The notes under the pieces were generated by a model. It was not told where the DNA came from. It was given only the letters and a program-made list of their open reading frames with translations, and did no database searches. From NCBI GenBank assembly GCA_023379345.1, contig JAMCUV010000104.1, positions 1-55,022 on the forward strand: a stretch of DNA of 55,022 nucleotides. Reading direction: 5' to 3'. Source of the DNA: Thermoplasmatota archaeon. GTDB lineage: Archaea; Thermoplasmatota; Thermoplasmata; Thermoplasmatales; Thermoplasmataceae. Position numbers and translations under genes: made by a program. Positions 1 through 55,020 of the stretch are shown piece after piece (within the stretch, counting starts at the first letter, position 1; the number at the start of each line of letters is the position of its first letter).

Positions 1-3
1 AAA

Positions 4-76
4 CGCCCCGAACGGGATTTGAACCCATGTCACGGGCTCGACAGGCCCGTATGATAGGCCGCTACACTATCGGGGC
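4..76 (-). tRNA. tRNA-Asp (anticodon GTC)
   Basis: The reverse complement reads GCCCCGA...TTCAAATCC...TCGGGGC G. It has a 7-bp acceptor stem, the anticodon loop CTGTCGA (GTC) and a canonical T-loop. It closely resembles typical archaeal tRNA-Asp. Confidence 0.9.
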
Positions 77-192
77 GGTTCCAGTGTATCATCGGACTTT
101 ATTAAAAATTATCTCACTTTAAGACCCTACAATGTACGGTGTTGTGTTTGCACGTACGAAACAAATAATACCATTGCTTCAGTAAAGCCCCC

Positions 193-11547: not shown

Positions 11548-13226
11548 TGGCAGATTATTCAACCCTAATGCTGACATCCGGTGTAATCCTGTCCCTTATA
11601 GGTATTGTCGCGTTTGCAATCTACTATATTATAGCCGACAGGAAGGCTAAACTTGCTGAAATGGCCAGAGAACGAGGCTATCAAAGCACGGCACAGTTCT
11701 ACAGGGATTTTGTTGCTAACAAGAAAAGAAGAATATCATGGAATATCATGGTAGACAATGACGCAAGAAGCCTTGGACTAAGGTACCTTCTCACCTCCAT
11801 TTTGTTCTTTTTCATAGCAGGAACGTTCGGACTGGGGATGAGACTCAGTCTAACATACAACGTTCCACAGACATTTTTTACATTCCTTACTCCAGACGCC
11901 TACAACATCCTTCTAACAGAACATGCAACACTCATGATTTATATGTGGGCCGTAGGAGCTGCTGTGGGTCTTGGTTACTACCTGTTGCCTTCCCATCTTA
12001 ATCTCACAAGAGACGGCCGGGGCGGTTATTCTTCCATTGCCTACTGGATCTGGCTCTTCGGTGCAATAATATTCCTGTTGTCCAGATCATCCTTCAGATG
12101 GTATCTGTACCCTCCGCTTTCACTTCAGCTCAGTCAGAATGGGGGCGGACTCTTTGCCTGGATGGGCATTCTTGGAATGATCTTCATATTTATCGGCCTT
12201 TTGATCGTCGCCATAGTCATTGTCCAGATCATCCTGTTCGACAGAAGCAAGGATATCAAGCTTGGCAAGATGTCTCTGTTTTCATGGAGCATTCTTGACA
12301 CCGCCCTGATGATGATAGTCTCAATCCCGCCCATTCTTGTGGGTTTAACGATGCTGATGTATGATTATTATGCTCCCATATTCTTCACGGCTTCAGCCCA
12401 CAACGTCCTGCTTTTTTTGATCCTGTTCTGGTGGTGGGGCCATCCTATTGTATACATTGCTGTCATTCCTTATTTTGGAATCATCTACGAGATTATTCCA
12501 AGATTCACAGGCACCAGCATTTACAGTTACAGATCCGGTGTACTTGGTCTGGGATTGCTCACCATTCTAAGTATGACCGTATTCGGCCATCACCTTCTTA
12601 ACTCAGGTCTTGGAGTGGCCTGGGATATCCTGTTTGAAACCACCTCTTTCATCGTCGTGATACCGTCGGCAATCACCGTTTTCAACTGGATTGCAACGTT
12701 CTGGCAGGCCAACAAGATCAGGCTTACCACTCCCATGCTCTTTGTCCTGAACGGAATTATAGATTTCATAATAGGTGGTATAACCGGTGTAATGCAGGTT
12801 TATCAGCCCGTAAACCAGCTGGTTCATGGGACTTACTGGGTTACTGCCCACTTTCACTTCATATTTATGGGAATAACTGTGGGCATAACGATGGCTGCGG
12901 TTTACCTGCTCTTCCCACTGATCACAGGGGGAAGGATGTATAATGTACTCTTGGCCAGGGTACATTTTTACCTGACCGCTATTGGGTCCATGCTCATGTC
13001 AACGGCCTGGGCCGTGGGAGGGTTTCTGGGGATGCCTAGGGCAGTTGCTGGGTACTTCAGCTGGTTCCAGGCATATCAGGATGCTTCAATCATAGGCGGA
13101 GTCATAATTGGAATAGGGCAACTGGTATTCCTTGCCAACTTTGCAATGAGCTGGCTCAAAGAGCCGACAACATCTGACGAGTCAATACTGGAGAAACCGT
13201 TTGCGGTCCCTGGAGTTGATGCCTGA
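11547..13226 (+). CDS. Haem-copper oxidase subunit I
   Basis: 559 aa with at least 12 TM helices. Contains WWWGHPIVYI (CuB His plus cross-link Tyr) and HFHFIFMG (haem ligands). HPIVY in place of HPEVY resembles B-family oxidases. Confidence 0.92.
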   Translation: MADYSTLMLTSGVILSLIGIVAFAIYYIIADRKAKLAEMARERGYQSTAQFYRDFVANKKRRISWNIMVDNDARSLGLRYLLTSILFFFIAGTFGLGMRLSLTYNVPQTFFTFLTPDAYNILLTEHATLMIYMWAVGAAVGLGYYLLPSHLNLTRDGRGGYSSIAYWIWLFGAIIFLLSRSSFRWYLYPPLSLQLSQNGGGLFAWMGILGMIFIFIGLLIVAIVIVQIILFDRSKDIKLGKMSLFSWSILDTALMMIVSIPPILVGLTMLMYDYYAPIFFTASAHNVLLFLILFWWWGHPIVYIAVIPYFGIIYEIIPRFTGTSIYSYRSGVLGLGLLTILSMTVFGHHLLNSGLGVAWDILFETTSFIVVIPSAITVFNWIATFWQANKIRLTTPMLFVLNGIIDFIIGGITGVMQVYQPVNQLVHGTYWVTAHFHFIFMGITVGITMAAVYLLFPLITGGRMYNVLLARVHFYLTAIGSMLMSTAWAVGGFLGMPRAVAGYFSWFQAYQDASIIGGVIIGIGQLVFLANFAMSWLKEPTTSDESILEKPFAVPGVDA

Positions 13227-14802
13227 TATGAATGATAAGGCCGCAGGTAAACTTGTTGGAGTAATTTTTGCAGTCATTATCCTGCTTGCAATGGGCGCCA
13301 CGCTATTCACCACAGTGAATTATCCTGTATCTCAGACTTTCTCCTTACCCTCTGCTCCCGCGCATCCCCCACATGAAGTCAACATCACCTTATATGCCGA
13401 TGCCAGTGGATGGGACTACCTTCACGGACCAAGCAACCCAACCATTACTATCCTCAATGGCACGCTTGTTCACTTTACTGTTATAGAGGAGGACAATCAA
13501 CCACATACTCTTACCATCAACCCTGGTTCTTCAGAATCCAGTTATTCCGATACCCTGCTTTCCACCTCACAGATCACAACCACTCCCGGTCACATATCAT
13601 ACGTAACCGCTTATTTCGACACAGTGGGAGTCTTCACTTACTGGTGCACCATACATCCAACCACAATGGTTGGCCTTATAAATGTGGTGTCCTCACTTCC
13701 GTCTAATGTTTATAAATTCCCAACTCCCCCTTCAAGCGCCACCGTTACCGCACATGTATCGCTGACCGCAACAAATTCTGGATTCACCAGCAGCAATGGT
13801 ACAAATCCAAACCTCTTCTTTGGGAACGATAGTCTCGTGAATTTCACGATCATCCAGAATGGAACCAGTATGCACGACTTTATTGTTGCCCCAGGTGACA
13901 ACGTTTCCAGTTTCAACTCCACGGTAATTAATGCCACGGAAATTGGCACAACGAACGGGAGATCAGTATCGGTTAACCTGTACTTTAACACAACTGAAGA
14001 ATTCACCTACTGGGATTCATATTATCCCTCGAAGACAGTTGGTCACATCTTCATCACCAGGAGCACCAGTACAGCCTCGATTGCGGTGACCGATCTTGGC
14101 CTTGTGACAGGCGGCACCCGAAACTGGACTTTACCAGTGGCCATTTCAACCGCCGTTGTCCTGCATTTTGAGGATACATCCAAACTGAACTACTCTGTCA
14201 TGGTTTCCTCGGACCGTTACTCTGCAGTATCGAACGGTACTTTGGTCTCAACCACAAATGCATCAACCAGCGTTGAAATTGCATCATACAACTTCACAAA
14301 AGTTACCCTTATCGACAACAAGGTTACCAGTGGCTCCACTGGGAACATCCTGTATTATGAGCACCTCCGGAACATTACGCTTTATGCAAACCACTTGGGC
14401 TGGAATTATTCTGTGGGATCTGTGAATCCTGTTTTCAACCTGACTCTGGGGACGATGGTCAATTTCACACTGATCAATGGGGACGGACTTAATCATACGC
14501 TGGCAATATCATATGGCAACCTTCCATATGCAGGAACCACTGAGAATGTAACTTCAGTAAACAGCACTGTGAAAACCTCCTTCGGCTACTTCCTGTTCCA
14601 AATGTATGGAACTTATACCTACTTCGATACATATCACCCATCATCAGCTGTATCCAGTATCAATGTTACAAACGAAACCAGTGCTTCTGCATCTGTTGCA
14701 ATACCTTTTACTCATATGTATGCATATCCATCGGAAAACAGTGGAACCCAGTATACATACGTCCTCTCAGGTACGGTCAATGAGCCTAAGAGATATAATT
14801 AG
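13219..14802 (+). CDS. Membrane-anchored multi-domain cupredoxin (sulfocyanin-like blue copper protein)
   Basis: N-terminal TM anchor. The first domain carries a complete type-1 Cu ligand set (QPH..., YWCTIHPTTM). It is followed by repeats whose equivalent positions are degenerate (YWDSYYPSKTV, YFDTYHPSSAV). I count 24 N-x-S/T sequons. The ATG at 13219 overlaps the end of subunit I. Confidence 0.8.
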   Translation: MPDMNDKAAGKLVGVIFAVIILLAMGATLFTTVNYPVSQTFSLPSAPAHPPHEVNITLYADASGWDYLHGPSNPTITILNGTLVHFTVIEEDNQPHTLTINPGSSESSYSDTLLSTSQITTTPGHISYVTAYFDTVGVFTYWCTIHPTTMVGLINVVSSLPSNVYKFPTPPSSATVTAHVSLTATNSGFTSSNGTNPNLFFGNDSLVNFTIIQNGTSMHDFIVAPGDNVSSFNSTVINATEIGTTNGRSVSVNLYFNTTEEFTYWDSYYPSKTVGHIFITRSTSTASIAVTDLGLVTGGTRNWTLPVAISTAVVLHFEDTSKLNYSVMVSSDRYSAVSNGTLVSTTNASTSVEIASYNFTKVTLIDNKVTSGSTGNILYYEHLRNITLYANHLGWNYSVGSVNPVFNLTLGTMVNFTLINGDGLNHTLAISYGNLPYAGTTENVTSVNSTVKTSFGYFLFQMYGTYTYFDTYHPSSAVSSINVTNETSASASVAIPFTHMYAYPSENSGTQYTYVLSGTVNEPKRYN

Positions 14803-15640
14803 GATCACCAAGGCCGAGATCACTTTTCTCATACTGGTAGTCGCAGTAACAGGCTTTCTTGCTGCTCCGGGTGCCTCGACGAGACTCATAATACTTCTGC
14901 CCCTGCTTGTGGCCGGAGGGCTGTCATCCATTTCTGCATCCCTTTTCAATAACATATACGACAGGGATATAGATGTCATAATGGCAAGGACCTCCTACAG
15001 AAGCAACATAGTCAACCAGGAGAATTACAGGAGGTTCATCGCATATTCATCGATTATTCTTATTTTTGCCAGCGCAGTTGCATATTTCCTGATAAATTTA
15101 CTCACGCTTCTCTTCATCCTGGGAGGCTTCGTCAGCTATGTCCTTCTTTATACAATGGTTCTGAAGAGAAGGACGTCGCTAAATATTGTCATAGGAGGCA
15201 TAGCCGGTAGCTTCCCTGCCCTCGCAGGATGGTCCGCGGTCACAGGTTCGGTTTCCTTGACGGCCATTTATATAGCACTCCTTGTCTTTGTTTGGACTCC
15301 CACTCATTTCTGGAGCCTTGCCATGGGGACAAAGAAGGACTACACATCGGCAGGGGTACCCATGCTCCCGTCGCTTGTCCCGGAAAACAGGGCTTTTGGA
15401 TACATCGTTGCTAACTCAGGCATAATGGTCATCTACAGTCTCCTGCCATTCTTTCTTCCTGAACTTGCGGTGGGGACGGCATATTTTTTCGTGGCAATAA
15501 TCCTCGATGCTATACTCATTTACTTTATGGTGGCCATCTATGTTAAGAACCTGGCAGCATCTTCCTTCAAGCAAGCATTTCACTTCTCAAACCTCTACCT
15601 CCTGGTGCTTTTGGTTTCCATCTGGTGGATAATTGCATGA
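14780..15640 (+). CDS. ctaB: Protohaem IX farnesyltransferase (haem O synthase)
   Basis: UbiA-family polytopic protein with NNIYDRDIDVIMARTSYR and a second Asp-rich region. Start set at the ATG at 14780, because the ORF extension upstream overlaps the cupredoxin gene. Confidence 0.88.
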   Translation: MSLRDIIRITKAEITFLILVVAVTGFLAAPGASTRLIILLPLLVAGGLSSISASLFNNIYDRDIDVIMARTSYRSNIVNQENYRRFIAYSSIILIFASAVAYFLINLLTLLFILGGFVSYVLLYTMVLKRRTSLNIVIGGIAGSFPALAGWSAVTGSVSLTAIYIALLVFVWTPTHFWSLAMGTKKDYTSAGVPMLPSLVPENRAFGYIVANSGIMVIYSLLPFFLPELAVGTAYFFVAIILDAILIYFMVAIYVKNLAASSFKQAFHFSNLYLLVLLVSIWWIIA

Positions 15641-17064
15641 AAGTTGCTTCCAGAGATCTATTGGTGCTGATCCTTACTGATCTTTCAATAGTTCTCTACC
15701 TTTACTTTCAGTCCATCTCGGGTTATCTCATAACGGAACCGCAGGCACTTCCCACGTTATATGCTCTGCTGGCCATACTGTTCATCCTCTCTGTTCCAGC
15801 TTCGGTGGCATCCCGACGTCTTCATACGTACGCCAGGTACCTGCACGCGTCGTTTGTCTTCTCGCTCATTGTGCTTCTTCTCCTGAATGAGCGTCTCATC
15901 GCGACCCCATTTATCATCATGCCGTTGCTTGTTTCGCTGATCACGTACGCAGACAGGTACCCGGGAAGGCGCAATTTTATTGTTCTGGCACTGTTCGTGG
16001 GGATAGAATTCCTGTTTGTTTTCATATCCGGCATCATCAGATACGAACCGGTCAGTGTGAATAACATCATCCTGGGGTCCATTTATGATGATGAGAACCC
16101 TGCAGGAGTCCCAGCCCTTTTCGCCTACAGCGACTATGTATCTTCAGGGCACCTTGTCATGACGCTGAGCCCCGTTTACCTCCTGCTTACGGGTTTTCTG
16201 GCGTCAGTCATTACCCAGAATTTCTCGATGATCTATAATCTGGTCTCAGGAACCGGGAGATATCTCAGACCAGACCTGGTGGGTTCAGGTCTCGTGCTGT
16301 TTTCATGCCAGTGCGAGGGCATTCTGGCTGCACTGCCATCGCTGGCATCCCTTGTAGTCAACCTCATATTCATTCCATTGATAGCAGAAAGCGCCATTCT
16401 GGTGGTGATGACAAACCTGCTCCTTCAGACCTATTTCCTGAGGAACCGAGGCTTTCCACCCTTCGAGAGACATAGGGAGCAGACCTCCATGAAGGCTCCA
16501 ATATATGCCATTCTGCTACTTGCTCCCATTATCCTGCTGATTTATGGCAGCTTGCTTGGGTGGCAGTACACCATATACTTCTTCTTTGGCATGAACATCG
16601 TCATGTACCTCGATGGCATGCTTTTCTTCATAATCCTTGCGAAGGTGGCAAATCTCAACCTCAAACCGGGTACATTAATGGCTTCCGGAATCTTCACCCT
16701 GTGCTCTACTGCAATGTTTGTATGGTTCATTCCCCCGCTTGTTGCCAGCGTGCTGCAGAACTTCGTTCTCTATGGAGTGATGATCCTTGTTACATTTGCA
16801 GCCGGCCTTGGAACGGGTTTCGTTTACTCCACCATCAGTACAAAATCCAGGGGGATTTACTGGGAGACCATTGCCATGATGATCAGCCTGCTTGCCCTTG
16901 TCATGCTCTACTATACGGCAGAGTTTGGGTATTCTCCATGGGCCTCATTCGGAGCATCTGAGGTATTTTTCTTTTCAATCGTCCTTGTGGCTTTATCCTA
17001 CCCTCTGCTGTGGATCACGACTAACGCTGCCCTGAGCAGGGTAGCCGCGGCAAGGGCTGCATGA
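15637..17064 (+). CDS. Polytopic membrane protein of unknown function (oxidase operon)
   Basis: About 475 aa with roughly 12 hydrophobic segments and a CQCEG motif. Both its start and its stop overlap neighbouring genes (ATGA junctions). No family recognised. Confidence 0.6.
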   Translation: MKVASRDLLVLILTDLSIVLYLYFQSISGYLITEPQALPTLYALLAILFILSVPASVASRRLHTYARYLHASFVFSLIVLLLLNERLIATPFIIMPLLVSLITYADRYPGRRNFIVLALFVGIEFLFVFISGIIRYEPVSVNNIILGSIYDDENPAGVPALFAYSDYVSSGHLVMTLSPVYLLLTGFLASVITQNFSMIYNLVSGTGRYLRPDLVGSGLVLFSCQCEGILAALPSLASLVVNLIFIPLIAESAILVVMTNLLLQTYFLRNRGFPPFERHREQTSMKAPIYAILLLAPIILLIYGSLLGWQYTIYFFFGMNIVMYLDGMLFFIILAKVANLNLKPGTLMASGIFTLCSTAMFVWFIPPLVASVLQNFVLYGVMILVTFAAGLGTGFVYSTISTKSRGIYWETIAMMISLLALVMLYYTAEFGYSPWASFGASEVFFFSIVLVALSYPLLWITTNAALSRVAAARAA

Positions 17065-17693
17065 CTATGGCTGAAAACAGATTCCTTCTCTACTTCATCC
17101 TGGTCGAGGCCTTCTTATTCGGCACGTTTTTCGGTACCCTGGCGTTCGAACGCAGTTCAGGTTTGGCAGGCCTCTTCTACGGATTTTATGTATATATCAC
17201 GCCCGTTCTGCTTCTGGGTCTGTGCCTTACAGATCCGGCTCTACGTGACAAACTCAGGTCACTAATAGTTTCCAGCGATCTCATCATTCTGATCGTCGTC
17301 ATCATTGGCTGGGGTATCGCCTGGCTGTATCTCGGCCTGAGTCCCTGGGGGCTATTTTTTCCATACGCCTTCATCGACGAGCTCAATTTCCGCTTCGTAT
17401 TCCAGAACAAGATCTCGGCTTATGCTGGCAGAGGCAGGGCAGTGATTTTGCAGGCCATTGCCTTTACAGCGCTGTACTCATCCTATGTTATTTTCGAAAC
17501 AGCAGGGTATCCCGGATTATTTCTTCCGCTGTTCTTCCTCGATATGTTTGGCATGGGAATGCTCTATGGTGCCTTATACTATCTCAGGGGAAACATATAC
17601 TCTGACATAGCCATACACATTTCGCTGTATGCAATGATCCCACTGCTTCCAGCATATCTCGGTTTTATTCCATATTCTCTCCTGCCCACGTGA
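17061..17693 (+). CDS. CPBP (CAAX/Abi) family intramembrane protease-like protein
   Basis: 210 aa and polytopic. DELNFRFVF matches the EExxxR-type motif 1, and a later HISLYAM resembles the HxxxN/D motif. Confidence 0.55.
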   Translation: MTMAENRFLLYFILVEAFLFGTFFGTLAFERSSGLAGLFYGFYVYITPVLLLGLCLTDPALRDKLRSLIVSSDLIILIVVIIGWGIAWLYLGLSPWGLFFPYAFIDELNFRFVFQNKISAYAGRGRAVILQAIAFTALYSSYVIFETAGYPGLFLPLFFLDMFGMGMLYGALYYLRGNIYSDIAIHISLYAMIPLLPAYLGFIPYSLLPT

Positions 17694-33023: not shown

Positions 33024-33395
33024 TCAGCTTCCTCCAATATACATAAGAGGATAATCCATTTCATCAACATATTTCAGGTAGGCATCCACAGATTCTGCAC
33101 CATATCTAATGCGGATGTGTACCCTGAGCATGTCTCCAGAGAGTGTTATATACTTATAAATGCCCTGCCTCTTTTTGACTATGTCCGGATCAATCCTGAC
33201 CTCGGCATCCTCAACAAAAGGCTGGACTTTCACGCTTTCCTTGATGGCATTTTCCAGGGACGTGACATTGCTCAGGTTGACTGGAACCCCTACGTACTGG
33301 TGATATACCGTTCCCAGTTTGATTCCTGCTTCAAATATTGCCCTTTCTCTGTCAGTGCATCGGAAAAAGTGCTTAGCGGGGTCCTGCATTTTCAT
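33024..33395 (-). CDS. MptD-like dihydroneopterin aldolase family protein
   Basis: TDRERAIFEAGIKLGTVYHQYVG matches the archaeal MptD/COG2098 signature. Start moved to an internal Met that is preceded by a TATA-like TTTATCTATAA. The long N-terminal ORF extension was judged spurious. Confidence 0.6.
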   Translation of the reverse strand: MKMQDPAKHFFRCTDRERAIFEAGIKLGTVYHQYVGVPVNLSNVTSLENAIKESVKVQPFVEDAEVRIDPDIVKKRQGIYKYITLSGDMLRVHIRIRYGAESVDAYLKYVDEMDYPLMYIGGS

Positions 33396-33468
33396 ACTGA
33401 ATTGCAGCATTATAGATAAATATTTACTGATAAAATTAATTGGAACGTCTGTCTTGCGAGACTGGATC

Positions 33469-33708
33469 TTAAGGTGAAACCCGCTCTTGAAATAATGGCC
33501 TTCCGATTTCAGTGAGCGCGTTAGCGTTGGTAGATCTCTGTTCTCCACGAGCGTATCTTGTGGCGTTTCCCTCCCTGACACAGTCCTGCATTGTGGATAT
33601 TATTGCGGCTTTGATCTCTCTGTCTATGGTCAGGCTCCAGAGGCACATCCTGTCCGTTAATCCCGGCTCATGTGTTATGTTTCCGCATGCTGAGCATCTT
33701 CCGGACAT
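33469..33708 (-). CDS. Hypothetical 79-aa ORF (coding status doubtful)
   Basis: ATG-initiated ORF with a single CxxC and no recognisable family. It overlaps another long frame and lies in a region with RNA-like features. Confidence 0.25.
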   Translation of the reverse strand: MSGRCSACGNITHEPGLTDRMCLWSLTIDREIKAAIISTMQDCVREGNATRYARGEQRSTNANALTEIGRPLFQERVSP

Positions 33709-34013: not shown

Positions 34014-34304
34014 ATGGAGCGGAGGGAGACGCCGGAAAGGCAGATCGAGGAGTCAAAAACTTCAACCAGGCCCAGGCTTACAAGCATGATCCCACTTCCA
34101 AAGATCACGGTAAGGAACATATACAGGTTTTTCGGGCTGTTTCTGGTGGTACTTGGTCTATCATTCTACGTTGGATGGTCCATAATTTATGGGACGTGGA
34201 CAGACATAGGCCTGTATTCCTTTGTTGCGCCCGTAGTTGTATTTGGCCTCTTGACTCTTCTCCTGATGCACGAGAAGGACATTGAAGAAGAACGCTCTTC
34301 ATGA
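34014..34304 (+). CDS. Small two-TM membrane protein
   Basis: A charged N-terminus is followed by two hydrophobic helices (FFGLFLVVLGLSFYVGW, LYSFVAPVVVFGLLTLLLM). A TTAATTATAG TATA-like box lies about 27 nt upstream of the ATG at 34014. The start is uncertain. Confidence 0.5.
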   Translation: MERRETPERQIEESKTSTRPRLTSMIPLPKITVRNIYRFFGLFLVVLGLSFYVGWSIIYGTWTDIGLYSFVAPVVVFGLLTLLLMHEKDIEEERSS

Positions 34305-35687
34305 ATGACCGATCAGTTCAGCTTCCCTTGTGGTACAGATAATCCTCAATCTTCGTAGCATGCCGTCTCGGTAGAAATAACACTCGGAGTATGGATCTCT
34401 TTTCCCTCCTGGCAGGAGGTCTGTCCGCATCTCGCCAAATCTGCTGGAGGTTAGGAAGCTTATTCCGTTCCTCTGCCTGTCTTTGTTCCTGAAAATGAAG
34501 TTCATACTGCTGTTTGAAAGCATGGATTTTCCCTCTGACGTTCCCGTGAAATCTTCCAGGTTCTGACTTATGCTTATCACTGAAGCATTGTAGTGACGTG
34601 AACTCCTGTAGATTGCGTCCAGGTAGCTGGTTGTCCGGGCGGATTTGAAGTATGTATGTGCCTCGTCTATGAGAATGATCTTCCTCGCTCCATTACCTGA
34701 CCTGAGAAACCTGTTTGTGATATCAATGGTTGCCTCAAGCAGGTCCGACCTTCGCTCCATTTCGTCAGGAGACTGCCTGATTATGTTCAATCTGCTGAAC
34801 GAAGCCTTGTCTATGATCTTCCCGTTTGCGGAAATCAGGTCTTCCTCTCCTATGACTGTGGAGGATTGAGAAAACAGTCCCGATCCATATTCTCCCATCG
34901 GGTCTATGACCAGAACGCTTTCTGCCATACCTGTCAGAAGCGCTCGCATCAGCAGTAGTTTTGAGAAGAATGATTTTCCGCTGCCTGTCTCTCCAACCAC
35001 AACCGAGTTGTAGGAATTCCCTCCAAACGGGTCGGCGAATACCGGCTTCTCGCTTTCTGCATCTATCCCCAGCAGTAGACCGCTCCTGGGTGGATTACTC
35101 TCATAGTACAGGGGGATTATGGAGGATACGGATCTGCTGTCCATGATGTATCTTGAACCATGGCTACCAAGGGGGTTGACGAGCTTTCCGACCCTGCGCC
35201 TTGAAATCACAGGTTCGTGTGTCAGGTCAAAACCAAGCAGGGACATTGCACGGGCGAACCTCCGGAGGTTTCCATTGAGATCTGCGGGGTGAGATCCTGA
35301 AACAACAAATGTCATCGACACCTGAAAGAGTGCGTCGCCATCCCGTGTGACCCTCATGCTGAGAAGCTCGAGTGAACGCAGCTGGATTTCCAGCTTATTT
35401 TTCAGTGGTCTGTTGCTTTCCGAGGTCAGGCGCTGATCCGAAATCCTGTCCGCGCCAATTCTCTTGAGTATGGATCTAGCCTTCACGTCAGGATATCTTT
35501 TCATCACCACCCTAGTGTATACTGGAAAACTTAGCCCGTCGATGAGTTCATAGATCATCTTGATACGGTTTTCTGCCACGTTATTCAGCGAGAGAAATGC
35601 ATAATGCTTCTTTCCCGATAGATAGTACCGCCTGACGTGAAAGACAGTGGAACGTTCCCTTCCGTGATCCCCGTGCAAATGATCCAT
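34299..35687 (-). CDS. VirB4/TrbE/CedB-like T4SS ATPase
   Basis: Walker A VVVGETGSGKSF, Walker B KIILIDEAHTYF, a downstream RHYNASVISISQNLEDF motif and a C-terminal NFIFRN motif, plus an N-terminal VirB4-like domain. Start set at the ATG at 35687, 4 nt after the upstream stop. Confidence 0.8.
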   Translation of the reverse strand: MDHLHGDHGRERSTVFHVRRYYLSGKKHYAFLSLNNVAENRIKMIYELIDGLSFPVYTRVVMKRYPDVKARSILKRIGADRISDQRLTSESNRPLKNKLEIQLRSLELLSMRVTRDGDALFQVSMTFVVSGSHPADLNGNLRRFARAMSLLGFDLTHEPVISRRRVGKLVNPLGSHGSRYIMDSRSVSSIIPLYYESNPPRSGLLLGIDAESEKPVFADPFGGNSYNSVVVGETGSGKSFFSKLLLMRALLTGMAESVLVIDPMGEYGSGLFSQSSTVIGEEDLISANGKIIDKASFSRLNIIRQSPDEMERRSDLLEATIDITNRFLRSGNGARKIILIDEAHTYFKSARTTSYLDAIYRSSRHYNASVISISQNLEDFTGTSEGKSMLSNSSMNFIFRNKDRQRNGISFLTSSRFGEMRTDLLPGGKRDPYSECYFYRDGMLRRLRIICTTREAELIGHS

Positions 35688-35691
35688 TGTT

Positions 35692-36402
35692 TCACTCCAG
35701 GAAACTGAGGCACTCCAGAGTCTCCTCTTCTCCCGGATCCCTGCAGGCAAAGCCATAGCTCTCCAGGTAGCGTCTGACACCTGCGGTCTCGTTTTCCAGG
35801 GTGGTCTGATTCACCTCATGTCCGGTAAGTATCACGTATGCCGACTGATAAAAACTGCCTCTGCATGCGTGTGCTACAAGATTCTCATAATCCTCCAGCT
35901 GATTGATATTCCCACCACCCGAAAACGCAGGTAGAGGAACTCTGCTTGAGTCCACCGGGATGCTAAGAAAGATCGCATCTGTACCCATGGAATTGAACGT
36001 TTTCTCCATCAGTGTAATGGCTGAGGCCCTCTCTGAGTCTCCAAGCCTCAAAATGGATCTCTGAGCAATGCCTGTGATGGAAAGCAATCTTCCATGGAAG
36101 GCGATTATGCAGTTCCTTGATGTGATTCTTGAATAATGTGTGTGAATCTCGGCTCTCTTTGGGGCGGTGTGATATACGACCGCCCTAAGCACTGCTGAAT
36201 ACAGCGGGGTGTCATCCCTGGAGATCAGGACCAGCGGAAAGACCATCACTGTAAAGAGAATTGCTGCAAAATAGCTAATTTCCATCAGCACCGAGGAGAT
36301 GCACACCGTTAGGACGACCATCACGACCCTCTCATAGGACATCCCAAGTATCCTGCTCCCATAGTCAAGAACGTTTGATGGAAACGGTGTATCTTCTGTC
36401 AC
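35692..36402 (-). CDS. VirB3-like two-TM segment plus soluble VirB4-N-like domain
   Basis: 236 aa. Two N-terminal hydrophobic helices (VVMVVLTVCISSVLMEISYFAAILFTVMVFPLVLI) are followed by a soluble domain. Its position immediately upstream of the ATPase matches T4SS gene order. Confidence 0.55.
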   Translation of the reverse strand: MTEDTPFPSNVLDYGSRILGMSYERVVMVVLTVCISSVLMEISYFAAILFTVMVFPLVLISRDDTPLYSAVLRAVVYHTAPKRAEIHTHYSRITSRNCIIAFHGRLLSITGIAQRSILRLGDSERASAITLMEKTFNSMGTDAIFLSIPVDSSRVPLPAFSGGGNINQLEDYENLVAHACRGSFYQSAYVILTGHEVNQTTLENETAGVRRYLESYGFACRDPGEEETLECLSFLE

Positions 36403-36405
36403 GGG

Positions 36406-37368
36406 TTAATCCCCACTCCTGTACGCAAGTTCACTTGCGTACACCTTGCTCCAGTCCAGCGGTGTTTCAGGAGACGTATATGGTCCGCTGAGTCCCTTCA
36501 TTTCATGCGACAATCGGAAACCTGTCAGGCTTGAGAGTGCTGATGTTGCATCCCCGGCCTTGGTCACCGCACTGAAGGCTCCGGAGAAACCTGAAACTCT
36601 TGATGCAACGTTTTCAGCTGAGATTCCCTCAAACATTGAACCCAAGATGGAGGAGTAAAAAATCCTGCTATTGCTCATGAGAATTAACGGAAGAGCGGAA
36701 CTGAGGAACAGAAGAGCCAGCTGCAGGGGAAAATCCCCCTGGAAAAAGCTCATGGCCTCAAGGACTACCAGGACGAAGAATGGGAGGATGGAAAGTTCAG
36801 CAAACATTTTCCACATCGCAACCGCATATTTTTCTGTCTTCTGGAAGGCAAACATGATGGAGAACAGAGGCAGCACCAGTATCATGAAGATCAGGATTGC
36901 CTGGCGGATCTCCAGGGTTCCCAGGAGTGCTATGATAGAGAAGAACAGTGCCGAAAGAAAGAGAAACGTTATGATCGATGAGGCGCTGCCTGCCGGACCC
37001 TGTACCTGGGATCCATAGTCGAGAATGCCCGTAAGGTTGTACCAGTCTGTTCCACTGCCGTTCCATACCACTGAAAATGCGGCAAATGAAGCGGAAAGAA
37101 TCACCCTGCAGATCTGGATCGAAAATAGGGATACTGTGAGCGCAAGCAGGTACCTGATCATCAGGTTCGCCGGGGAAGTGGGACTACCCAGCGAGTTGGA
37201 TACAAGCATGTATATGGAAAGGATGATTATGGCAAGCCCTGCAGCATATACGTATATGCTTGAAGTCAGGAATCCATAGAACTGTAAGATGCCTGTGTTT
37301 CCTTCTATGAGCATCTCATAGGCGTACTTGGGAGCAAGCCCGTAAGTAACCACCACGTTCCAGAGCAA
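36406..37368 (-). CDS. VirB6/TrbL/CedA-like polytopic membrane protein
   Basis: 320 aa from a TTG start, with about 6 TM helices and a soluble tail of about 85 aa. The 81 nt upstream are open and in frame with the preceding gene. Confidence 0.55.
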   Translation of the reverse strand: MLWNVVVTYGLAPKYAYEMLIEGNTGILQFYGFLTSSIYVYAAGLAIIILSIYMLVSNSLGSPTSPANLMIRYLLALTVSLFSIQICRVILSASFAAFSVVWNGSGTDWYNLTGILDYGSQVQGPAGSASSIITFLFLSALFFSIIALLGTLEIRQAILIFMILVLPLFSIMFAFQKTEKYAVAMWKMFAELSILPFFVLVVLEAMSFFQGDFPLQLALLFLSSALPLILMSNSRIFYSSILGSMFEGISAENVASRVSGFSGAFSAVTKAGDATSALSSLTGFRLSHEMKGLSGPYTSPETPLDWSKVYASELAYRSGD

Positions 37369-37449
37369 GGAAGCGGAAGCAATGTAAGCGCCATCGAAGA
37401 AAGAAATAATGTCGCCAATGATGGAGGCGACCTCCGATGCCAGCAGGAT

Positions 37450-37731
37450 TCACGACCCCGTTGCCAGGTAAAGGAATATGGTATAGAGCGTCCCGGACAT
37501 GGCGAGAACATAAATCACTGTGCCTATGAAAGCATTCTTTAGCCTCAGTTTCGCGGAATAGCGCTTGTCCTCGTCGTCGCTGAAGAAATTCAGTGCTATG
37601 GGGATCCAGAGTATGGCTATGAGAATGGCCGATACAGATGCGACAACCTCGTACACCCGATCCATAATCTGGGCGATCTGGGTAGAATTTGCCGAGGTTG
37701 TCATTATTGCAATTAGTGTACTAAATGACAT
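37450..37731 (-). CDS. VirB2/TrbC/CedA1-like two-helix pilin-type protein
   Basis: 93 aa, made of a leader-like N-terminus, a hydrophobic helix, the charged loop SDDEDKRYSAKLRLKN and a second hydrophobic helix. Confidence 0.55.
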   Translation of the reverse strand: MSFSTLIAIMTTSANSTQIAQIMDRVYEVVASVSAILIAILWIPIALNFFSDDEDKRYSAKLRLKNAFIGTVIYVLAMSGTLYTIFLYLATGS

Positions 37732-37755
37732 TTCGGCGAAATAGTATCTGTTTAT

Positions 37756-38253
37756 TTAAAATGTCATTTTCTTCTTTCTTTCCCTGACCTGCTCAAGAAG
37801 TTTTTTCCTGTTTCTGCTTCTCTCCTCTCCCTCCTTCCATCTGGCCTTTTCCTCATCGGTCTCCACAATGAGTCCAGGTACTGGCGTGGGTTTCCTGTTC
37901 TCATCGATGGCCACGTATGTCAGATGTGCAGAGGTGGTAAACCGTAGCTGCCCCGACAGTGTATCCTCTGAAAAAACGCTGATCTCAACTTCCATGGTCT
38001 CTCTGGTAACGTAGGTGATCCTGCCGTCCAAGTGCACTATGTCTCCGAGGTTTATGGGAGACAGGAAAAACATGCTGTCAACACTCCCTGTCACACACTG
38101 TTTTCTGGCATGTTTGGCTGCGATTATTGACGCGACGTTATCAATCCATTCCATGAGCTTTCCTCCGTAGAGGCCGTTCAGTACATTGGTATCTTCCGGC
38201 AGGACCATTCTGTGCAGACTCACCTGCGATTCGCTGGCTCTCTTTTTCTCCAT
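37756..38253 (-). CDS. Acyl-CoA thioesterase (hotdog fold, YciA/BFIT-like)
   Basis: MVLPEDTNVLNGLYGGKLMEWIDNVASIIA and SVDSMFFLSPINLGDIV are typical of this family. Start set at the internal Met just downstream of the permease stop. Confidence 0.8.
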   Translation of the reverse strand: MEKKRASESQVSLHRMVLPEDTNVLNGLYGGKLMEWIDNVASIIAAKHARKQCVTGSVDSMFFLSPINLGDIVHLDGRITYVTRETMEVEISVFSEDTLSGQLRFTTSAHLTYVAIDENRKPTPVPGLIVETDEEKARWKEGEERSRNRKKLLEQVRERKKKMTF

Positions 38254-38285: not shown

Positions 38286-39773
38286 CTATTCCTTCCTGCG
38301 CCACATACTTATGGAAAGCTTTACGGGGATGATGACCCATGCTATTGCGGAAAGCATTGCAATTATGATTAAATTTGAACCGAGTATCGACTGGCTAACG
38401 GAAAAACTGTTTCCGATATATGATGGGAAAAGTGCCGGAATTTCAGCATAGTAAGCGAACGGCAGGAGCCCATTCGAAAGATTTGCAGGGTCTGCAGCAG
38501 ACAGGATAGATAACGCCGTGACTGCAGGTCCCTTAACCATGACATAGCCACCATTTGAGTATTGAGCGGAGGCCGTAAGGGCAAGTGAAACGACGATGCT
38601 TACCCCAATGATCAGGAAAATGGCAGAAATCAAACCAGCCACAAATACCATGTTCTTGCTCAGCCTCAGAGTTGAAATAAGGAACATCAAGGACATTAAT
38701 GCGCTGGATGCCACTGCAGATACCAGTGCATAGATGGCAAATGGCAGCGGACTGCCATAATATCCGGTCCTGACAGTGAGTACAGCAAAAGAGGCTGTCA
38801 TGAGTATCATGTACAGGACAGTCAAACCCACCGCACCTGATGCATATCTGGTGAGCACTATCTCCCGTCTTGTCACGGGCCTGACCAGAACGGAGTCCAT
38901 GGTCCCCTCAGCCACCTCCCTGCCAAATACTACATAACCGGCCATGACCCCTGACAATGGAATCATGAAGGCGAGGAAGGTATCAGGCGATTCCTGGCTG
39001 AAATCCTTGAACATCTGCAGAGAGCCTGATGGAGATATGGTTGCAGAATCCTGGGAATATCCCTGCGGGCCATAGTTAAGAAATCCCTGTACACAGCCAA
39101 GTTTCGCCACTGGTATGGATATAACCTGGATTGGGTCCGAGAAATTATAGGTCTGATAGAAATCCCCGTTCGGCGTTTTGAGAACACCGGTCTCCACCTG
39201 GGTGTTGATGGACTTCCTGTGGAAATTTACCACGAGAAAGTGATCCACCGAATCTCCACCTCCAGGGAATATCTGGTCGATCACCACTCCTGGATTCGGC
39301 GACGAAACAGGGACCGGGTCAACGGTTCCGTTGAACGTTCCACCCGGGCATATGACTGAATACTTCTCCACGGGGTTGTACTCATATTGAGACAGATAGG
39401 TTGCCCTGAAGAAGAGAGAATAATTTGCATATCCATTTGCCGCCGTTATGGCATTATCTCCAGTTTCTATCATCTGCGCTGAAAAATATAGAGATATTTT
39501 CGCCCCTCCAACCGGATTTCCATTCTCATAGGCCAGATAGTTCATGAGATATATGGAGTCGTTCTGAAGGTAAAAGCCTGAAATTAATACAGGACGGTGC
39601 TCTGCAACGACGTTGCTTACGCTTGGCGTCAGAGCCAGGAGTACACCCAGCAGCAGGAACAGGGAAACAGCAACTGCGGTCCCCCTCTTACGCGACTGGT
39701 GGAAAAGCTCAGCTTTGAGTCTTTTGATCCACTTTCTCAATGAGTCGTAAAAACGCATTTTCGAGACTTCCAT
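38286..39773 (-). CDS. ABC-2 type transporter permease with a large extracytoplasmic N-domain
   Basis: 495 aa. One N-terminal TM is followed by a soluble domain of about 220 aa and then six TM helices (NosY/ABC-2-like). Confidence 0.7.
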   Translation of the reverse strand: MEVSKMRFYDSLRKWIKRLKAELFHQSRKRGTAVAVSLFLLLGVLLALTPSVSNVVAEHRPVLISGFYLQNDSIYLMNYLAYENGNPVGGAKISLYFSAQMIETGDNAITAANGYANYSLFFRATYLSQYEYNPVEKYSVICPGGTFNGTVDPVPVSSPNPGVVIDQIFPGGGDSVDHFLVVNFHRKSINTQVETGVLKTPNGDFYQTYNFSDPIQVISIPVAKLGCVQGFLNYGPQGYSQDSATISPSGSLQMFKDFSQESPDTFLAFMIPLSGVMAGYVVFGREVAEGTMDSVLVRPVTRREIVLTRYASGAVGLTVLYMILMTASFAVLTVRTGYYGSPLPFAIYALVSAVASSALMSLMFLISTLRLSKNMVFVAGLISAIFLIIGVSIVVSLALTASAQYSNGGYVMVKGPAVTALSILSAADPANLSNGLLPFAYYAEIPALFPSYIGNSFSVSQSILGSNLIIIAMLSAIAWVIIPVKLSISMWRRKE

Positions 39774-40629
39774 TTTCCCTAGAAATCGACGATACCCTGT
39801 AACCGCGGCGTATCAGTTCAGCATTGAGTTCTGGGGCATCAATGTTGGCGTCCCTTATCCTGAAATTTCTTCCCACTGCCGAGACCTTCCCATACTCCGT
39901 GAGCACTCTCTCAGTATCCTCCCCGGGGTTTTCAATCCTTACGGTCAGGTCATTTCCTCCATGCGCATACATGTCCTCCGGGAGTAACTCGCCGATTATC
40001 CTCCCCCTGTGAATCACAACCATCCGGTCAGCAATGCCCTCAAGCTCTGCGAGGGCATGGGTGGAAAGCAGTATGCTGCAGCCATCCTTCCGCATCTCCA
40101 GTATGATTTCGCGGATCATCTTCATTCCTGCGGGGTCAAGTCCATTGAGGACTTCGTCAAAAATAATGTTTCGCGGGCTATTTACAAGTGACGCAGCTAT
40201 GGCAAACCTCTTTGCCATCCCCAGTGAGAATTTTCCCAGCCTCCTATCACGTTCTTCCAAGAGTCCGACCTTGCGGAGCAGTGAATTTGAAAGATCTCTC
40301 CGGTCCCACGTCCCCTGGGAGTAAAAACTGGCCATGTACTCCAGGAGATCACCTGCTCTTGACCCCGGATCAAAATAAGACTGATCGGGAACAAGGCCCA
40401 ACTTCTCTGATGCCAGAGGTTTTTCACGCCTCAGGTCCAGGCCATCAACGATTATGTTCCCGGAATCTGGCTCAAGAAGACCAGCCATGATTCGTATGGT
40501 GGTGGTTTTTCCGGCACCATTGAGACCGATAAACCCAGTCACACGGCCATCCGCTGAGGTTATGGAGACGCCATCGACCGCAGGCCTTTCACTCTTTCTG
40601 AAGGTCTTTGTTACAGATTCCGTCGCTAT
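39709..40629 (-). CDS. ABC transporter ATP-binding protein
   Basis: Walker A GLNGAGKTT, the signature FSLGMAKR and Walker B IIFDEVLNGLD. The conserved N-terminal strand (TESVTKTFRKSERPAVDGVSITSADGRVTG) lies upstream of the GTG used by the ORF track. I extended the feature to an ATA codon at 40629, so the start is uncertain. Confidence 0.85.
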   Translation of the reverse strand: MATESVTKTFRKSERPAVDGVSITSADGRVTGFIGLNGAGKTTTIRIMAGLLEPDSGNIIVDGLDLRREKPLASEKLGLVPDQSYFDPGSRAGDLLEYMASFYSQGTWDRRDLSNSLLRKVGLLEERDRRLGKFSLGMAKRFAIAASLVNSPRNIIFDEVLNGLDPAGMKMIREIILEMRKDGCSILLSTHALAELEGIADRMVVIHRGRIIGELLPEDMYAHGGNDLTVRIENPGEDTERVLTEYGKVSAVGRNFRIRDANIDAPELNAELIRRGYRVSSISRENGSLENAFLRLIEKVDQKTQS

Positions 40630-54948: not shown

Positions 54949-55020
54949 GGATAGGTGGCAGAGAGGTCATGCGTGGGACTGCAGATCCCATTTACTAGGG
55001 TTCAAATCCCTACCTATCCT
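54949..55020 (+). tRNA. tRNA-Cys (anticodon GCA)
   Basis: GGATAGG/CCTATCC acceptor stem, anticodon arm TGGGA-CTGCAGA-TCCCA, T arm TAGGGTTCAAATCCCTA and discriminator T (U73, the Cys identity element). Confidence 0.88.

Follow-up and report, generated by a model that had tools for sequence, protein, structure and literature searches.

Within a 55,022-nucleotide (nt) stretch of DNA from a Thermoplasmatota archaeon of the family Thermoplasmataceae (hereafter, the window; assembly GCA_023379345.1, contig JAMCUV010000104.1), a compact minus-strand gene block encodes the parts of a minimal machine derived from a type IV secretion system (T4SS). These parts are assigned as a VirB2-type pilin, a polytopic membrane protein and a highly divergent VirB4-type ATPase divided over two polypeptides, and a small convergent gene adjoins the block at its 3′ end. 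We are highly confident that this module is old, vertically inherited, T4SS-derived, functional and chromosomal. As an explanation of the whole we favour, by a modest measure, a domesticated minimal T4SS-derived apparatus that exchanges cellular DNA.

An earlier note on this DNA had described four co-oriented minus-strand genes between 34299 and 37731, and four open reading frames (ORFs) are indeed present there, at 37450–37731, 36406–37368, 35692–36402 and 34299–35780. The topologies that it had proposed agree with a Kyte–Doolittle scan of all four proteins, which gives two transmembrane (TM) helices for the pilin, six with a tail of about 85 amino acids (aa) for the polytopic protein, two N-terminal helices followed by a soluble domain for the 236-aa protein, and none for the ATPase. 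With boundaries refined as described below, the features of the locus are as follows.

37450–37731, minus strand: VirB2-type T4SS pilin, 93 aa; PF18895 above the curated cut-off, two TM-like helices.
36406–37449, minus strand: lineage-specific polytopic membrane protein; from the ORF, the TM scan and its constant position.
35692–36402, minus strand: N-terminal piece of a split VirB4, 236 aa; from fused forms in relatives and a bridging homologue in locus L040.
34299–35687, minus strand: VirB4-type ATPase, 462 aa; from Pfam, NCBIfam and Protein Data Bank (PDB) profiles and the fold of a relative.
34014–34304, plus strand: convergent two-TM protein of about 96 aa, conserved in 34 loci; start placed from orthologue lengths.
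37753–37760, minus strand: TATA-box-like element TTTAAATA, read from the sequence; candidate promoter.

The 93-aa protein had been proposed to be a VirB2-like pilin with a helix–loop–helix layout, and it passes the T4SS_pilin family PF18895 with 28.8 bits, above the curated gathering cut-off of 26.6; the same family is matched by 21 of 22 pilin orthologues (E 0.01 or better). Its closest NCBIfam model is Mbov_0395, a pilin-like conjugal transfer protein of a mycoplasma integrative and conjugative element (ICE), at 2e-5. A variable N-terminal stretch of about 20 residues, possibly a leader, is followed by hydrophobic helix 1, the charged loop SDDEDKRYSAKLRLKN (consensus SxDExRRxxAKxRLKN in the alignment) and hydrophobic helix 2. 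The pilin is the most conserved component of the module, with 48–68% identity across the order. Searched against PDB sequences, the family profile returned only chance-level matches to cytochrome oxidase (E ~0.3) and no solved conjugative pilin (VirB2, TraA, CedA1 or TedC). With two TM helices, a charged loop and a passing family score, we assign it as a VirB2-type T4SS pilin.

The ATPase lies at the other end of the block. Its maximal ORF (34299–35780, 493 aa) is over-extended at the 5′ end, and the likely start is the ATG at 35687 (MDHLHG...), 4 nt downstream of the TGA that ends the preceding gene; this placement and the lengths of orthologues indicate a protein of 462 aa. It comprises the second half of a VirB4 N-domain and a compact C-terminal P-loop motor domain, which carries the Walker A motif GETGSGKS and the Walker B motif ILIDEAH, both read correctly by the earlier note in support of a VirB4/TrbE-type ATPase, and then RHYNASVISISQN. 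The P-loop is invariant across 13 homologues. Pfam places AAA_10, DUF87 and P-loop_TraG on the protein. Among NCBIfam models the highest scores belong to VirB4_plasma (90.5 bits, 5.7e-26), the CD1110 VirB4 (82.4 bits, 2e-23) and F-type TraC (72 bits, 2.5e-20), with CedB (29.9 bits, 2e-7) and CedD (26.1 bits, 3e-6) weaker and no significant match to TraD/VirD4 coupling-protein models. Compared with PDB sequences, the ATPase family profile finds the C-terminal domain (CTD) of VirB4 (4AG5) at 2e-14 and HerA-type proteins at 3.5e-7 and 1e-3.

The fold agrees with these scores. AlphaFold2 (AF2) was run on P0019, a fused relative that is 31% identical to the window protein, and gave a model with a mean predicted local distance difference test (pLDDT) score of 62, in which residues 252–690, covering the CTD and the second half of the N-terminal domain (NTD), are well modelled. 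In a Foldseek search with this model, TrwK/VirB4 of R388 occupied ranks 1–13 (E 6.5e-19 to 7e-14, 450–584 aligned columns); HerA appeared from rank 14 and FtsK lower still. By profile scores and fold ranks VirB4 therefore stands ahead of HerA, FtsK and VirD4, which goes against the clustering with HerA that the earlier note had named as a ground for rejection, and it is on these measures, not on a reference tree, that the assignment rests. As judged by sequence and model, the ATPase is a very divergent VirB4-type protein and no equivalog of any curated family.

The 236-aa gene between the ATPase and the polytopic gene had been called VirB3-like. Its position and its two-helix TM hairpin bear this out; an independent VirB3 identity does not hold, as the window protein has no Pfam match and no similarity to VirB3 families, and its sole likeness is to the N-terminus of mycoplasma ICE VirB4, seen as a weak match to positions 35–168 of the VirB4_plasma model (E 0.022). 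The protein combines a P-x-N…Y…G motif, the TM hairpin at the VirB3 position and the first half of a VirB4 N-domain. In P0019 and about 15 loci its homologue is fused in frame to the ATPase as a single protein of 595–758 aa. Fused forms are listed at L013, L018–L023, L028, L031, L032 (Cuniculiplasma), L034, L037 and L039, and split forms in the window and at L001–L012, L014–L016, L024–L027, L029, L033 and L036.

A bridge between the window protein and recognizable VirB4 is provided by a divergent module in another archaeon (locus L040). The L040 orthologue of the 236-aa protein matches positions 37–275 of 894 of the VirB4_plasma model at 9e-9, and the L040 ATPase matches positions 188–734 of 752 of the CD1110 VirB4 model at 1e-59. 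When L040 was left out of the hidden Markov model (HMM) of the middle-protein family, the model still found the L040 protein at 1.9e-14, compared with 0.02 or worse for 200 shuffled sequences. On account of the fused forms and this bridge, the 236-aa gene is better read as a detached VirB4 N-terminus: as we interpret the sequences, it provides the membrane anchor along with the N-domain's first half, the 462-aa gene supplies the second half and the motor, and the split arose by simple gene fission of one VirB4. Both forms are intact, which makes this a stable fission/fusion polymorphism within one order. The overlap of 89 nt between the 236-aa and 493-aa ORFs might suggest a frameshifted pseudogene, a candidate that we rejected given the ATG 4 nt after the stop, the 462-aa length of orthologues, and the intact and selected state of the forms. 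Archaeal VirB4, CedB and CedD proteins frequently have TM helices of their own, and VirB3 and VirB8 are absent (PMC11868833).

The polytopic gene stands constantly between the pilin and VirB4 genes in the related loci. Besides its six clear TM helices and C-terminal tail, the window protein has a hydrophobic N-terminal segment, and its TM helices number six to seven in all. The proposed VirB6/TrbL/CedA-like identity is upheld by position and topology and fails in sequence, for which no similarity to VirB6/TrbL (PF04610) or CedA was found; from position and topology, the protein is plausibly the VirB6/CedA counterpart. A HMMER scan of 1.84 billion representative proteins returned only 48 relatives, and neither the most distant of these representatives nor the less diverged L040 copy belongs to a known family by Pfam or NCBIfam. 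Word-indexed homologue searches with the profiles of the polytopic and 236-aa families yielded 3–4 proteins each and shallow alignments.

The beginning of the polytopic gene is unusual. From its first canonical start, a TTG at 37368, the ORF (36406–37368) encodes 320 aa, and the conserved N-terminus reaches 27 codons further upstream, to 37449. The TGA of the pilin is in frame with the polytopic ORF both in the window (37368–37452, minus strand) and in an independent close relative from another sample, L051 (1631–1730), and the 27 codons that separate this TGA from the first canonical start specify the N-terminal sequence conserved in the family, ILLASEVASIIGDIISFFDGAYIASAS. Between the window and L051 the stretch shows seven synonymous and two non-synonymous codon changes; this pattern and the conserved N-terminus suggest that it is translated. 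The TTG at 37368 is CTT in L051. In most relatives a polytopic ATG lies between 4 nt before and 8 nt after the pilin stop, and in L001 and L005 a 1-nt indel shifts the polytopic gene to another frame. In the sub-lineage of the window, the polytopic protein may be made by an unconventional event at the pilin TGA: initiation at the ATC or CTG directly after the stop, termination–reinitiation, or read-through of the TGA.

On the opposite strand, a fifth gene converges on the block, with a 3′ end that overlaps the ATPase stop by 6 nt (34299–34304). Its product, the ~96-aa two-TM protein, is marked by the core motif FY..WSI.Y.TW.D.GLYSF, and the gene is present, convergent and overlapping at the 3′ end in 34 loci, with 40–72% identity across the order. 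Where the flanks rearrange, the gene remains with the block. We considered this protein as a second, CedA2-like pilin and rejected the candidate, as hhalign gives no relation to the pilin. At the other end of the block, the pilin gene follows the 4HBT thioesterase gene after only 24 nt. The element TTTAAATA overlaps the stop codon of this upstream gene, and its centre lies about 26 nt before the pilin ATG. Its likeness to the archaeal TATA consensus and its spacing suggest a candidate promoter of a leaderless pilin or operon transcript. A sigma-70 promoter and terminator scan was uninformative, being not applicable to archaea.

We surveyed related loci in one genome per GTDB species by peptide patterns, a design that counts carriers and from which absence in Thermoplasma or Picrophilus is not inferable. 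The ATPase is found in about 37 species-representative Thermoplasmatales genomes, including Oxyplasma meridianum M1, a Cuniculiplasma sp., a Ferroplasma metagenome-assembled genome (MAG) and many MAGs from acid mine drainage (AMD). The shared gene order runs rpiA (-), 4HBT thioesterase, pilin, polytopic protein, VirB4-N, VirB4-C and small TM protein (-), and continues with mptD (DHNA), NTPase, trm1, ubiA, pcrB and purS/purL. The housekeeping context with mptD/trm1 on one side and rpiA on the other, remarked on for the window, is thus the same placement in about 37 species-level genomes, a recurrence that, with the PF18895 matches of the pilin orthologues, goes beyond chance. In L013, L019, L021–23, L032, L033 and L037 the flanks differ and the five-gene block is intact. 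One carrier, L024 (DAICSO010000007.1), is titled ‘MAG TPA_asm: bacterium’ but has the full Thermoplasmatales synteny, and is probably a mislabelled archaeal MAG.

Divergence of the module follows that of its hosts. In Mantel tests over 17 genomes, distances between ATPases correlate with distances between PurL proteins at r = 0.93, with 0 of 999 permutations as high, and the pilin correlates with PurL at r = 0.88; both values are on a par with those of housekeeping-gene pairs. Compared with L051 (dS ~0.4–0.6), the five genes have dN/dS values of 0.01–0.19, namely 0.011 for the pilin, 0.097 for the polytopic gene with its 27-codon extension included, 0.19 for VirB4-N, 0.094 for VirB4-C and 0.147 for the fifth gene; the neighbouring thioesterase gene has 0.061. 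Order-wide synteny, vertical inheritance and purifying selection bear out the suggestion that this is a domesticated module in a Thermoplasmata-type archaeon.

Signs of mobility are missing from the locus. No relaxase, type IV coupling protein (T4CP) or integrase gene is found in the window or in the flanks of related loci, a search for att-like direct repeats flanking the block found none, and GC content across the region is unremarkable. The earlier note had seen no relaxase, VirD4-type coupling ATPase, integrase, partition or replication genes in the window, and this is borne out, as the other scanned ORFs are all housekeeping: DnaK/DnaJ/GrpE, haem–copper oxidase subunits, sulfate assimilation, ComA, NFACT, PGI, PurL, PurD, ScpB, HemE/HemH, AspRS and ThiI. 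The only tRNA genes, tRNA-Asp(GTC) at 3–77 (minus strand) and tRNA-Cys(GCA) at 54949–55020 (plus strand), lie at the ends of the window, far from the module and with no associated integrase. Among plasmid proteins, the nearest ATPases are less than 30% identical and belong to haloarchaeal plasmids, Sulfolobus pNOB8-type plasmids and enterobacterial TraC; the pilin has no match. A collection of contigs from viruses and mobile genetic elements (MGEs) contains only two matches, at 21–24% identity. The distant ATPase relatives P0022 and P0023 occur in other organisms, in neighbourhoods of hypothetical genes.

A second, divergent type of module occupies positions 39–6846 of L040 (Thermoplasmata archaeon KM4348-28), where the neighbours are again housekeeping genes, though different ones, for HMG-CoA reductase, a SpoU methylase and FtsY. 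Upstream of its pilin an additional gene encodes a protein of 817 aa, a 112-aa ORF separates the two VirB4 pieces, and no homologue of the fifth gene was found beside it.

How might such a module work? Cells of the Thermoplasmatales have neither a wall nor an outer membrane, and for this reason a VirB7–10 core would be unneeded. Under the explanation we favour, the two VirB4 polypeptides would assemble into a hexameric ATPase in which the first brings the membrane anchor and so replaces VirB3. This ATPase would dock on the polytopic protein, acting as the platform or channel (the VirB6/CedA counterpart) at the single cytoplasmic membrane, and ATP hydrolysis would drive extraction of the 93-aa pilin from the membrane and its polymerization into a conjugative-type pilus or conduit. 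The cargo would be cellular DNA, which members of a population would pass to one another for use in recombination and repair, in the manner of the crenarchaeal Ced and Ted systems. The substrate would be prepared by host enzymes, possibly with a separately encoded VirD4-family ATPase, such as the one that Cuniculiplasma encodes at a separate locus (PMC5155288). Cellular DNA is the most likely cargo in view of the fixation of the module in the chromosome and the lack of a relaxase, coupling protein or origin of transfer at the locus. Pilus formation, the DNA substrate, the direction of transfer and any role of the fifth gene are parts of this scheme that we infer, and the narrower claim that intercellular DNA transfer is the main job of the module falls, on our analysis, a little short of probable.

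Several observations weigh against this explanation as a whole, and it has to be compared with three others. The ATPase scores far below curated cut-offs (37.1 compared with 643 bits for TIGR00929, and 90.5 compared with 590 for VirB4_plasma). In the P0019 model, residues 58–251 have pLDDT below 50, so that the TM hairpin and the first half of the N-domain have no fold support. The polytopic protein matches nothing in Pfam, NCBIfam, PHROG or the PDB (the last searched up to E 10), whether one sequence or the family of 22 members is searched, and its AF2 model from a four-sequence alignment (pLDDT 39.8, predicted template modelling score 0.25) is unusable for a fold search. Its 27-codon stretch has no ATG, GTG or TTG in this genome, the block is linked to no gene for DNA processing, and DNA exchange and pilus assembly are functions predicted from the genes. 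Some of these points could instead be taken to mean that the ATPase is a HerA/FtsK-superfamily motor that resembles VirB4, among neighbours that form no T4SS, and serves, for example, defence, DNA repair or segregation. The Pfam match to DUF87, the central domain of HerA (5.5e-11), and the public annotation of orthologues as DUF87/helicase HerA domain-containing, Cdc6-like ATPase or hypothetical also fit that idea. The VirB4 models, however, lead those of HerA and FtsK by tens of bits, the alignment of the L040 orthologue and the first 13 Foldseek ranks are to VirB4, and the adjacent gene independently passes the T4SS_pilin threshold, a co-occurrence that is specific to T4SSs; a HerA/FtsK motor is therefore very improbable. 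Still less credible is the idea that a conjugative element or plasmid once integrated here, lost its relaxase, T4CP and integrase, and now decays as a non-functional remnant. The minimal component set with no DNA-processing genes, the division of VirB4 into two ORFs here and the polytopic N-terminus with no canonical start would all fit a remnant. Yet the location is identical in the species-level genomes surveyed, divergence is congruent with that of PurL, every gene is under purifying selection down to the start-less 27 codons, both forms of VirB4 are intact over many species, and neither a GC deviation nor att repeats mark the block. Taken together, fixed synteny, congruence with PurL, selection and the lack of close relatives on MGEs exclude an ICE or plasmid as well as a decaying remnant.

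The remaining alternative accepts the T4SS-derived pilus apparatus and gives it a job other than DNA transfer, as adhesive or contact pili or as a contact-dependent conduit for proteins or metabolites, which would serve biofilms, cell–cell bridges or the known physical links of Thermoplasmatales to Micrarchaeota/ARMAN partners. It would account for the lack of a linked relaxase, coupling ATPase or DNA-processing gene, and for a constraint on the pilin that far exceeds that on any other component, which would make sense were the filament itself the functional product. Thermoplasmatales from AMD have pervasive pili and intercellular connections, seen by cryo-electron tomography (cryo-ET), whose molecular basis is unexplained (PMC4110969). 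Relaxase-less T4SSs of Patescibacteria with PF18895 pilins have likewise been discussed as repurposed and are suspected of non-conjugative roles, which also counts against our preferred explanation (PMC12102498). Against a non-DNA job, the chromosomal T4SS derivatives that have been studied in archaea, Ced and Ted, act in DNA transfer (PMC9905601, PMC11868833), the genomes already hold type IV pilus loci that are credited with the observed pili (PMC5155288), and neither effector-like nor adhesin genes accompany the core block. We regard a non-DNA job as unlikely, though as the most serious of the three competitors to the exchange of cellular DNA.

Elsewhere in the window, two plus-strand ORFs of 533 and 479 aa (13201–14802 and 15625–17064) match no Pfam family at E ≤ 1e-5. 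The two ORFs lie on either side of a gene for a UbiA-family prenyltransferase, directly downstream of the genes for cytochrome oxidase subunits II and I, and may encode uncharacterized oxidase-associated membrane proteins; an Rce1-like CAAX protease (17061–17693) follows the 479-aa ORF. The maximal ORF of mptD (33024–33581, minus strand) is over-extended at its 5′ end, with 185 aa compared with 120–129 aa in relatives and a Pfam match that begins at residue 76. In the 38286–39773 / 39709–40542 region (minus strand), the maximal ORF of an ABC-2 permease is likewise over-extended (495 compared with 464 aa in relatives), and the ORF of an ABC ATPase appears to be N-terminally short (277 compared with 305 aa).

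The module is a strong candidate, from its genes, for DNA exchange or cell–cell connection in wall-less, acid-loving archaea. Recombining Ferroplasma/‘plasma’ populations in AMD were reportedly described by Eppley et al. in 2007. For the frequent homologous recombination within AMD populations of Thermoplasmatales and for their abundant pili and bridges, a candidate of four to five genes is now at hand. A bolder and more tentative reading, which we hold to be possible rather than probable, is that a monoderm-type (MPF-FATA-like) module was captured independently of Ced and Ted, was fixed in the chromosome no later than the root of the order, and now acts as a population-level DNA-exchange organelle or an interspecies ‘synapse’ pilus. 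If true, it would offer a molecular basis both for the mosaic, recombining genomes of AMD Ferroplasma/‘plasma’ organisms and for the unexplained connections seen by cryo-ET (PMC4110969). Cultured carriers, Cuniculiplasma and Oxyplasma meridianum, make the hypothesis testable. The split and fused VirB4 proteins with their built-in anchor also indicate how a T4SS can run with neither VirB3 nor VirB8 in a single-membrane, wall-less cell.

The known systems closest in overall design are Ced and Ted, chromosomal T4SS derivatives that import DNA (PMC9905601). The earlier note had described both as functionally characterized in Crenarchaeota only, and the searchable literature agrees; we found neither outside Crenarchaeota in the literature searched. 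It had also supposed that the module might be undescribed, which is partly so. A 2016 paper on Cuniculiplasma by Golyshina et al. lists the cluster in one sentence as ‘type IV secretion components’ (arCOG05340, arCOG04034 (VirB4) and arCOG05369; PMC5155288), and a VirB4 component is also named, with no analysis, in an ‘E-plasma’ paper of 2023; in the literature found, the cluster is neither analysed nor tested.

Similarity to Ced (CedA, CedA1, CedA2, CedB and CedD/CedE of Sulfolobales and Desulfurococcales) extends to the chromosomal location, the lack of a relaxase and of a VirB7–10 core, and a minimal set of parts in which a two-TM VirB2-like pilin and a polytopic membrane protein accompany a VirB4/HerA-superfamily ATPase with its own TM anchor. 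Both systems have an additional small two-TM protein, CedA2 there and the convergent 96-aa protein here, and in both the VirB4 N-domain is spread over two polypeptides, CedB and CedD reportedly covering different parts of the VirB4 NTD (PMC11868833). However, Ced belongs to Thermoproteota and our module to Thermoplasmatota. The ATPase here is no CedB orthologue, as its scores of 29.9 bits for CedB and 26.1 for CedD are far below cut-offs of 700 and 600, and bacterial VirB4 models match it much more strongly. The pilin is of the PF18895 type and the polytopic protein has no detectable similarity. One fissioned VirB4, fused in sister lineages, takes the place of two paralogous ATPases, and the Thermoplasmatales module is known from genes alone. 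The description of the locus as Ced/Ted-like is accordingly sound for the architecture and for the chromosomal, relaxase-less state, and not for orthology to CedA, CedA1, CedA2 or CedB.

Ted, from Thermoproteales, likewise derives from a T4SS that was domesticated in the chromosome; its ATPase TedB is a bona fide VirB4-like protein, and a VirB6-like protein and a VirB2-like pilin accompany it (PMC9905601). Ted belongs to another phylum, and the split VirB4 and the extra conserved two-TM gene are peculiar to the Thermoplasmatales module. When the family profiles were compared with solved chains, only VirB4/HerA-type ATPases matched, in a library for which the presence of Ted is unconfirmed.

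By profile, both the ATPase and the pilin are closest to monoderm MPF-FATA systems, especially to mycoplasma ICE (Mbov_0395 and the VirB4 Mbov_0397) and the CD1110/Tn916-type VirB4. The match to mycoplasma VirB4 begins at model position 35 or 37, which is the region of the TM hairpin here, and the hosts are wall-less or single-membrane. Those systems are mobile, with relaxase, T4CP, integrase and variable sites, whereas ours is fixed, vertically inherited and devoid of those genes, and its scores are far below equivalog cut-offs. The relaxase-less chromosomal T4SSs of Patescibacteria are likewise MPF-FATA-derived and widespread, with VirB4 and a PF18895/VirB2-like pilin (PMC12102498); they differ in being bacterial and episymbiotic, in having detectable VirB1, VirB6/PrgH and VirB8/PrgL homologues, and in their synteny, which is not shared. 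Crenarchaeota are the only group in which conjugation machinery has been shown to be domesticated for cellular DNA exchange, and the Thermoplasmatales module would be the same solution in a different phylum. A different branch of VirB4 and pilin, held at one chromosomal position under order-wide purifying selection, points to recurrent T4SS capture as a general archaeal strategy. We read the module as an order-wide T4SS domestication independent of Ced and Ted, a new variant that stands beside both and is a member of neither.

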